This document shows, piece by piece, positions 6,290-6,418 of a stretch of 64,000 bases of DNA. How positions within the stretch are numbered: position 1 is the first letter of the stretch; each line of letters starts with the position of its first letter. Made by a program: the position numbers and the translations under genes. The DNA lies in NCBI GenBank assembly GCA_965227515.1, contig CBDDFZ010000001.1, positions 1,344,001-1,408,000 on the forward strand, read 5' to 3'. Below the pieces are notes generated by a model. It had not been told where the DNA came from and did not search any database. It saw only the letters and a program-made list of their open reading frames with translations. This DNA is from Alphaproteobacteria bacterium (GTDB taxonomy: Bacteria; Pseudomonadota; Alphaproteobacteria; CALKHQ01).

Positions 6290-6418
6290 GCCGACGGGCA
6301 CTCCGAGTAATGGATTGGTCTATGCGACCGTGAGGATCTCGGACCCGCCGGCGTCGCGGTCGTACACGCGAACGGAAGTATGGGCTTTTCGCCCGCATGC
6401 AATCCGGCGTGCAGACCA
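6290..6418 (+). ncRNA. Putative IS110 bridge RNA core (target- and donor-binding loops); 5' end unknown
   Basis: Two internal-loop hairpins whose loop strands match the REP target and the donor junction (see findings). Confidence 0.65.

Follow-up and report, generated by a model that had tools for sequence, protein, structure and literature searches.

An IS110-group insertion sequence in an alphaproteobacterial genome whose left end very probably encodes a bridge RNA directed at a host REP family

A 64,000-nt stretch of an alphaproteobacterial genome (contig CBDDFZ010000001.1, positions 1,344,001 to 1,408,000), termed here the window and providing the positions given below, carries an insertion sequence (IS) of the IS110 group at 6252-7405. 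The element is 1154 bp in length when the right-hand copy of the core is counted in, and is inserted in an inverted pair of the host's repetitive extragenic palindromes (REPs). It consists of a non-coding left end of 177 nt (6252-6428), a recombinase gene, and a right end of 17 nt after the stop codon (7389-7405). The two ends, TGCATG and ACGGAAG, do not form inverted repeats. The left end very probably encodes a bridge RNA like that of IS621, with guides that correspond to the host REP target and to the element's own ends.

The element, its recombinase and its boundaries

The recombinase gene encodes 319 amino acids if translation starts at ATG 6429. The protein matches Pfam families PF01548 DEDD_Tnp_IS110 (3.6e-13) and PF02371 Transposase_20 (1.2e-17), and scores 183.3 bits against a cutoff of 140 with the NCBIfam model NF033542, 'IS110 family RNA-guided transposase'. 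An earlier note on this DNA had assigned the element to the IS110 family, and these matches uphold the assignment. The nearest solved structures are the recombinases of ISCro4 and IS621 (phmmer E about 1e-23). Residues D15, E59, D101, D104 and S241 align to identical residues of ISCro4 (PDB 9t56) and are invariant in five relatives; the catalytic set reported for IS621 is D11, E60, D102, D105 and S241 (PMC11208158). Both domains by which the IS110 group is recognized, the RuvC-like DEDD domain and the Tnp domain with a catalytic serine, are present. A GGAGG sequence is found at 6434-38 and precedes TTG 6444, and therefore the true start of the recombinase may lie a few codons 3′ of ATG 6429.

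The ends of the element are fixed by a second genomic copy, by related sites that lack the IS and by contigs from public sequencing runs. The second copy (C1:1792695-1793903, minus strand) is 97% identical to that of the window, with identity starting at 6246, and is inserted in AATGG-AT-CCTC. The insertion site in the window is the near-perfect target GATGG-AT-CCTC. At the left junction of the window copy ATGG-AT is joined to TGCATG (6246-6257), and at the right junction ACGGAAG-AT is joined to CCTCGG (7397-7411). The region 6060-6251 is host DNA: it is missing from the second copy, is kept in the empty-site contigs, and is partly repeated elsewhere without the IS. Elsewhere in the genome, several places share a host repeat with 6123-6190 and with 7403-7453, and three paralogous sites without the IS have the repeat halves ∼58 nt apart and read ...GATGGAT(C/T)CTCGGCRCC....

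An empty allele of the locus itself is found in contigs from three public runs belonging to three studies. In these, 6248 is joined to 7403 and exactly 1154 bp are skipped; three letters at the joint (GAT) are ambiguous and fit either side. Insertion is precise, with no duplication beyond the shared core, as seen from the empty-locus joint and in agreement with the paralogous empty sites. One of the empty-locus runs has a further insertion, with the flank ...CTGAA/ATGGAT. The empty and filled alleles among strains show past mobility only. The excised circle is predicted to have the junction ACGGAAG-AT-TGCATG; this junction was not seen in the public-run contigs, which would drop rare forms.

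These boundaries alter several proposals of the earlier note. Its left end at about 6070 lies in host DNA, the true left end being TGCATG at 6252. It had also described the actual insertion site as ATTGGGTCCTC with two mismatches, a TC-like core, and a circle junction GGAAGA-TC-TTGTGG, all three of which fall because the true junctions lie at 6252 and 7405. The site is GATGG-AT-CCTC, this element has an AT core (the clade as a whole AT or GT), and the predicted circle junction is that given above. The more general statement that the core differs from the CT of IS621 holds, with AT at both junctions. The target given in the earlier note is correct even though the insertion site it considered is not.

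Differences between the two genomic copies (3%) are concentrated at 6537-6545 and 6608-6630 (region 6428-6630 compared). Public runs X1-X4 carry the variant resembling the second copy at the divergent positions, and three of them have the window locus empty. Because of this, the window copy looks like a strain-specific insertion of a distinct variant and not a recent duplicate of the second copy.

The left-end RNA and its guides

The 177-nt left end folds with a minimum free energy (MFE) of -78.7 kcal/mol (z = -2.72), which is moderately better than chance; 2 of 200 shuffled sequences are as good. The structure has a 5′ stem-loop and then two further stem-loops, the first of which would bind the target and the second the donor. 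Its conservation was assessed with relatives whose recombinases show 53-64% amino-acid identity: two loci from the genome collection, five from sampled genomes of the class and 80 from metagenomes. The protein search of the genome collection had found three loci, one of which (L023, a partial match of 46% identity) was excluded. A recombinase match was present in 3 of 400 other genomes of the class sample at E <= 1e-60 and in none of the three other genomes of the family, and the plasmid collection gave no recombinase match (tblastn, E <= 1e-50). A truncated copy, L034, was left out. The 87 loci were parsed with fixed patterns; downstream sequence of 25 nt or more is available for 85, and 82 yielded a right end. 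The guide counts leave out COPY2, a near-duplicate of the window copy, and L026-L029, which belong to a second IS family. L096, where the pattern picked an internal TGCTTG, was dropped for the left-flank tests only, and loci whose contig ends before a feature were also dropped.

Compensatory changes are clearest in the outer stem of the target loop. In a MAFFT alignment of 57 distinct left ends (A2), all 11 of its pairs have such changes and 94.7% of cells are paired, but the 5′ hairpin and the proximal stem are misaligned (50% and 57% paired). A covariance model, R1, was built from A2 and used to align 72 relatives (A4). Of the A4 cells 88.4% are paired, as against 28-46% in slid controls, and in 22 of the 39 stem pairs both partners vary. 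Covariation scores 0.191, compared with 0.112 for shuffled alignments, none of 500 shuffles reaching it. Pairing of the 5′ hairpin and the proximal stem rises only to 61% and 66% in A4; in all five pairs of the 5′ hairpin (helix 1) both partners change, although alignment quality is low in this part. Donor-loop stems are more than 99% paired in the 72 relatives. The proximal stem, when an offset of 0-2 is allowed in the relatives and likewise in the control, has 4 bp or more in 52 of the 57 relatives; the mean run is 4.98 versus 3.03 in shuffled sequences, and the variants include UCCGA/UCGGA, CUCGA/UCGAG, CCCGA/UCGGG and UCGCG/CGCGA. When the base right after the core is forced to pair, there is no signal (mean run 3.40 versus 3.24). 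A further alignment, A3, mixed in weak minus-strand hits and was left out of the counts. An Rfam scan of the left end gives no family at threshold, although Rfam 15 may hold no bridge-RNA family.

The four guides can be read from the internal loops. The left target guide (LTG) matches the flank of the second copy, AATGGAT, at 7 of 7 positions and that of the window, GATGGAT, at 6 of 7, and the right target guide (RTG) matches the right flank of both genomic copies. The left donor guide (LDG) has the letters of the right end. The right donor guide (RDG), written as DNA, is CATGCAAT (6396-6403) and is the exact reverse complement of ATTGCATG, that is, AT+TGCATG. LTG and RTG overlap on AT, and RDG also overlaps its junction on AT.

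As far as sequences can provide one, the decisive test for a bridge RNA is covariation between guide and DNA. RTG agrees with the right flank at all four non-core letters in 62 of 76 loci, and in 13 of the 18 distinct guides; 13 of the 14 loci that miss are off at one letter. The mean agreement is 3.79 compared with 2.48 when loci are permuted, and none of 10,000 permutations reaches it. LTG agrees with the left flank at 5.77 of 7 positions versus 4.37 permuted (n = 70; again 0 of 10,000), and when one locus is taken per distinct guide the values are 5.85 and 4.25 (n = 46). The donor guides follow the ends of their own element. In 73 of 76 loci LDG and the right end have identical letters, and of the eight distinct LDG variants six match their right ends exactly (ACGGTAG, ACGGAAG, ACGGGAG, ACAGGAG, ACAGAAG and ACGGTCG). 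RDG tracks the left-end variants (ATCGTATG, ATTGCTTx), and its last letter tracks the core, ..AU being found with AT and ..AC with GT in four loci.

Much of what the earlier note had read in the RNA is confirmed. The first hairpin (TCCGAG 6302-07/CTCGGA 6338-43, enclosing AATGGAT 6309-15, GGTC-TATGC-GACC 6317-29 and GAGGA 6332-36) and the second (GGTC/GACC 6358-61/6414-17, CACGC/GCGTG 6365-69/6407-11 and GGGC-TTTTC-GCCC 6382-94) are as it described them, and ACGGAAG (6372-78) does equal the element's own right end at 7397-7403. The fold and the relatives agree with its bridge-RNA architecture, a 5′ stem-loop plus two stem-loops each with an internal loop. It had proposed that stem conservation in homologues and guide/target covariation be checked; the stems are kept with compensatory changes, and the guides covary as given above (RTG 62/76; LTG 5.77 versus 4.37; 0/10,000 permutations for both). 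It had further held that copies in unrelated targets would speak against a programmed target, and the second genomic copy lies in AATGGAT/CCTC. RDG, which it considered only weakly identifiable, is the exact reverse complement noted above.

In the mechanism proposed, the left end would encode a bridge RNA of about 6266-6420, with target guides in the first loop and donor guides in the second. LDG ACGGAAG would correspond to the right end and RDG CAUGCAAU would pair with AT-TGCATG at the left end, the two being joined as ACGGAAG-AT-TGCATG in the excised circle. The RNA-bound DEDD/Ser recombinase (6429-7388) would then use the shared AT core for strand exchange with the host sequence (A)ATGG-AT-CCTC(G), which opens a family of REP hairpins with dozens of genomic copies. 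Transcription from a junction promoter, the exact cleavage positions and the handshake pairing are proposed by analogy with IS621.

Table 1. Positions of the IS110-group element, its predicted RNA features and its flanking repeats in the window
Feature	Position	Strand	Basis
Host REP, left arm of inverted REP pair, outside element	6123..6190	+	Matches genomic loci without IS
Inverted target with 1 mismatch, inside left REP arm	6164-74	-	Mismatch scan of window
Left target half GCGATGG + core AT (6250-51)	6243..6251	+	Paralogous empty sites, empty-locus contigs
IS110-group insertion sequence	6252..7405	+	Second copy 97% identical from 6246; 1154-bp skip in contigs
Right donor half, left-end terminus TGCATG, RDG-bound (predicted)	6252..6257	+	Positions 1-6 at least 90% conserved, 57 relatives
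Candidate -10, CATGTT, of promoter formed only across circle junction	6254..6259	+	Inferred
5′ stem-loop of bridge RNA (CUCCCU / AGGGAG)	6266..6284	+	MFE fold
Target-binding stem-loop: outer stem 6287-98/6344-55, proximal stem 6302-07/6338-43, inner hairpin 6317-20/6326-29	6287..6355	+	MFE fold, covariation
LTG AAUGGAU, same letters as top strand of left target + core	6309..6315	+	Flank match
RTG GAGGAU, reverse complement of AT+CCTC	6332..6337	+	Right flank match
Candidate handshake guide CU, target loop, complements donor positions 6-7 AG (7402-03)	6338..6339	+	Inferred
Donor-binding stem-loop: stems 6358-61/6414-17 and 6365-69/6407-11, inner hairpin 6382-85/6391-94	6358..6417	+	MFE fold
LDG ACGGAAG, same letters as right-end terminus 7397-7403	6372..6378	+	End match
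RDG CAUGCAAU, reverse complement of AT+TGCATG (core + left end)	6396..6403	+	End match
Candidate handshake guide CC, donor loop, complements target positions 6-7 GG (6248-49)	6404..6405	+	Both letters invariant, 57 relatives
IS110-family DEDD/Ser recombinase gene, 319 aa from ATG 6429	6429..7388	+	Pfam, NCBIfam, aligned catalytic residues
TTGACA, candidate -35 of junction promoter, overlaps stop codon	7385..7390	+	Sequence
Left donor half ACGGAAG (right-end terminus) + core AT	7397..7405	+	Second copy, empty sites, contigs
Right target half CCTCG + remaining host REP (right arm)	7406..7453	+	About 10 other genomic REP copies match

Upstream of the element is an open reading frame (ORF) of 361 amino acids resembling an ABC-transporter ATPase (4918-6060, plus strand), with a Walker motif and LSGGQ judged by eye. 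It is followed at ∼6030-6060 by a GC-rich hairpin and T-run, a likely terminator, and the REP pair holding the IS lies just beyond. Among the relatives, some have 90-190 nt between the stop codon and the -35 sequence or right-end terminus, compared with 0-10 nt otherwise, and GC-rich REP-like palindromes are found inside. The stretch is ∼130-140 nt in L021, L022, L043, L049, L050, L054-L056, L059, L063, L065, L066, L068 and L073, and ∼90-190 nt in L069, L093, L095, L096, L103 and L104. Relatives with a long stretch after the stop codon apparently carry extra sequence inside the element.

Core, junction promoter and target repeats

By analogy with IS621, the core is read here as AT. Of 82 right junctions in the clade, 75 have AT and 7 GT as the core. 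In IS621 all four guides include the core (PMC11208160). Here LTG, RTG and RDG include AU. Directly behind the LDG 7-mer, the next two letters are those of the core in 1 of 76 loci; with a 1-nt bulge in between, this is so in 3 of 76, including that of the window. Pairing of LDG with the core appears not to be conserved in the clade, and the AU after a one-letter bulge in the window LDG is probably a coincidence.

In bridge-RNA systems, the letters just 3′ of RTG and RDG, termed handshake guides, are reported to base-pair with the partner DNA at positions 6-7 once strands have been exchanged (PMC11208158; 10.1101/2025.05.14.653916). The corresponding letters here are CU and CC, which are invariant in 57 relatives and would pair with donor AG and target GG, respectively. 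Positions 6-7 of the left target are GG in 68 of 70 loci, and those of the right end are AG in 80 of 82, the G having been fixed by the search pattern.

When the ends are joined, TTGACA, a 17-nt spacer and CATGTT come together. TTGACN, the 17-nt spacer and CATGNT are present in 55 of 66 relatives, and the T at position 6 of the -10 hexamer, outside the RDG footprint, in 65 of 66. TTGACN occurs in 79 of 82 right ends, but the search pattern demanded a TTGAC-like word. In IS621 a promoter is formed at the joined right and left ends of the circle (PMC11208160). The candidate promoter here would start an RNA near the 5′ hairpin, which fits IS621.

The bridge-RNA system has been described for IS621 and predicted for most IS110 elements (PMC11208160), and the element of the window is a new example of this system, described in 2024, not a new kind of system. 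As in IS621 and IS622/ISCro4, the recombinase has a DEDD RuvC-like domain and a Tnp domain with catalytic serine (PMC11208160; PMC11208158). As in IS621, a long left end (177 nt, about the length of the IS621 RNA) is combined with a short right end, a 5′ stem-loop is followed by a target loop and then a donor loop, LTG has top-strand sense and RTG is antisense with an overlap at a 2-nt core, and the natural target is a REP sequence. The right end likewise has a candidate -35 box that would allow a promoter across the circle junction, and the two letters 3′ of RTG and RDG complement partner positions 6-7. The differences lie in the recombinase, which is only distantly related (phmmer E about 1e-23); in the core (AT, with GT in some relatives, rather than CT); in the target, (A)ATGG-AT-CCTC instead of ATCAGG-CT-AC; in LDG, which lacks core pairing in 72 of 76 relatives; and in position 7, which is G in both target and donor and produces a shared GAT triplet.

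ISPpu9 and ISPpu10 of Pseudomonas putida are also IS110 elements found at one position of a multi-copy, hairpin-forming intergenic repeat, but the host, the target sequence and the protein lineage are different. The IS1111 group and the seekRNA elements share the recombinase family and the RNA-guided logic. IS1111 elements have the RNA in a long right end and possess long subterminal inverted repeats (PMC11208160), unlike the present element, where the RNA would be in the left end and the right end has 17 nt after the stop; it does not belong with IS1111 on this basis. Characters of the IS110 group found in the element are the long left end, short right end, predicted two-loop RNA, target guides, donor guides and precise insertion.

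The target repeats are abundant, with 73 copies of ATGGATCCTC and 48 of AATGGATCCTC in the 5.5-Mb genome, and the reading of the target guides in the earlier note as the host REP motif (A)ATGGAT/CCTC is borne out by the 73 copies. The target 10-mer nearly always opens a hairpin that closes with ..CGAGGATGAC(A). Many REP copies are arranged head-to-head ∼25 nt apart, similar to bacterial interspersed mosaic elements (BIMEs), and the second copy of the IS is in such a pair. The window has four target hits at one mismatch or fewer compared with 0.74 expected. AATGGATCCTC is exact at 47147-57(+) and 27362-72(-), and has one mismatch at 34166-76(+) and 6164-74(-). The earlier note had AATGGAT-C-CTC correctly as exact at 47147 and near at 34167, but overlooked the two minus-strand sites.

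Both occupied sites are of the long-REP class. The abundant short-hairpin class (AAATGGATCCTCGGGACAAGCCCGAGGATGAC) has none occupied, and its match to the guides is no worse. The abundant unoccupied class, TAAC..ATTGAAATA.TGGACATAAATGGATCCTCGGGACAAGCCCGAGGATGAC, resembles a longer repeated unit in its own right. An additional structural determinant of targeting has been reported for ISPpu10 (10.64898/2026.03.19.712850). With insertions at only 2 of 73 or more matched sites, sequence match alone may not decide insertion, and the REP hairpin may act here as an extra gate or barrier.

A second IS110-group element is present in four copies (C1:85078-86180, C1:2520686-2521788, C1:3321409-3322511 and C2:1183041-1184143; L026-L029, L117-L120). 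Its amino-acid identity to the first is 40%, and its RNA is built in the same way (R1, 22-28 bits). Read by eye, its core is CT and its REP target CCAGCC-CT-CTCCCCC, with guides GGGAGAG (RTG) and ACAGUCGCU (LDG) and junctions ..GCC-CT-TGTATC and CAGTCG-CT-CTCCCC. A scan of the whole genome with R1 finds six places, the two copies of the first element (∼172 bits) and the four left ends of the second family (22-28 bits), and no orphan bridge RNAs. Judging by these features, the genome carries two bridge systems, each directed at its own REP family.

Alternative explanations and significance

Several points weigh against a bridge RNA as read here. The left target in the window mismatches two distal positions if LTG is taken as 9 nt, and of 73 or more matching sites only 2 are occupied. 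The relatives also lack independence, many metagenome loci being close kin. A4 was fitted to the model, so that its pair counts lean towards the structure, and the donor-loop stems and both inner hairpins are nearly invariant and so provide no covariation support. LDG lacks a core-complementary dinucleotide in the 72 relatives noted above. Sequence does not fix the crossover, because GAT is common to both junctions, and the core is possibly GA within this triplet. A promoter scan finds no sigma-70-like promoter in the integrated copy; the junction -10 is weak (CATGTT, 3/6), and its conservation is confounded with donor recognition since it overlaps the donor site. Among the listed public runs that hold the stretch, none is recorded as RNA.

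The left end might instead be a 5′ leader that regulates translation or stability of the transposase, for example by occlusion of the start codon, with the guide matches incidental to a protein-based specificity. The structure is directly upstream of the start codon at 6429, and invariant donor-loop stems would fit any conserved function. A leader, however, needs no loop letters that change with the host flank. Such changes are seen in RTG with the right flank (62 of 76 loci, 18 different guides) and in LTG with the left flank, LDG likewise keeps step with the right end (73/76), and the strand logic, with LTG sense, RTG antisense and an overlap at the core, is exactly that of IS621 (PMC11208160). 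A leader is thus very unlikely. A functional RNA could also be sought on the minus strand, as an antisense small RNA that represses the transposase. RF02234, the Xanthomonadaceae small RNA sX15, gives a full-length cmscan match at 6282-6427(-), exactly antiparallel to the bridge RNA. The match is sub-threshold, at 21.5 bits compared with a gathering score of 55 (E = 0.8), and none of the papers listed by a literature search contains the term sX15. The guide logic is readable only on the plus strand, where R1 scores 172.8 bits versus 17.9 on the minus strand, though R1 was built from the plus strand. An antisense RNA of this type is considered extremely unlikely; sX15 may have arisen from the opposite strand of an IS110 left end.

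The left end might also be coding, as the reading frame that begins at TTG 6072 stays open across the whole left end, and the ORF 6072-7388 (438 amino acids) would then be a transposase with an N-terminal extension. But 6072-6251 is host DNA outside the element, left-end gaps among relatives are not multiples of three, and the Pfam and PDB matches begin at about residue 10 counted from the 6429 start. This explanation is virtually untenable, and the 438-amino-acid ORF, which spans host DNA and the predicted RNA gene, is an artefact. That 6252-7405 is an IS110-group insertion sequence whose left end encodes an IS621-like bridge RNA is, by comparison with these alternatives, very probable.

The earlier note had also spoken of a new programmable recombinase. 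The recombinase is a member of the RNA-guided IS110 family, but 'new programmable' overstates the case: the system is known from IS621, and programmability would follow here from natural covariation. A literature search found no IS110 paper with an 'AT core', although the supplementary tables of Durrant 2024, with thousands of IS110 elements, may already include the clade. It is suggested tentatively, and with more doubt than confidence, that the ∼80 relatives form a natural clade with an AT or GT core, a donor guide without core pairing, and fixed handshake letters (CU, CC) that pin target GG and donor AG, in addition to a REP hairpin that possibly gates insertion. If both the clade features and the gating are true, the clade would supply bridge editing with an enzyme whose native core is other than CT, and targeting gated by structure would have a second natural example. 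Engineered non-CT cores of IS621 were reported to be generally less efficient (PMC11208160), and for this reason an enzyme with a native AT core could widen the range of editable sites.

For annotation, the element start is 6252 and the 438-amino-acid ORF is spurious. Current mechanistic understanding is unchanged by the element. Its interest is that a bridge-RNA code is legible from sequence, with four guides, empty and filled alleles, and dozens of relatives with co-varying guides. In addition, two IS110 elements on two REP families offer a tidy system for studying how a genome is shared.

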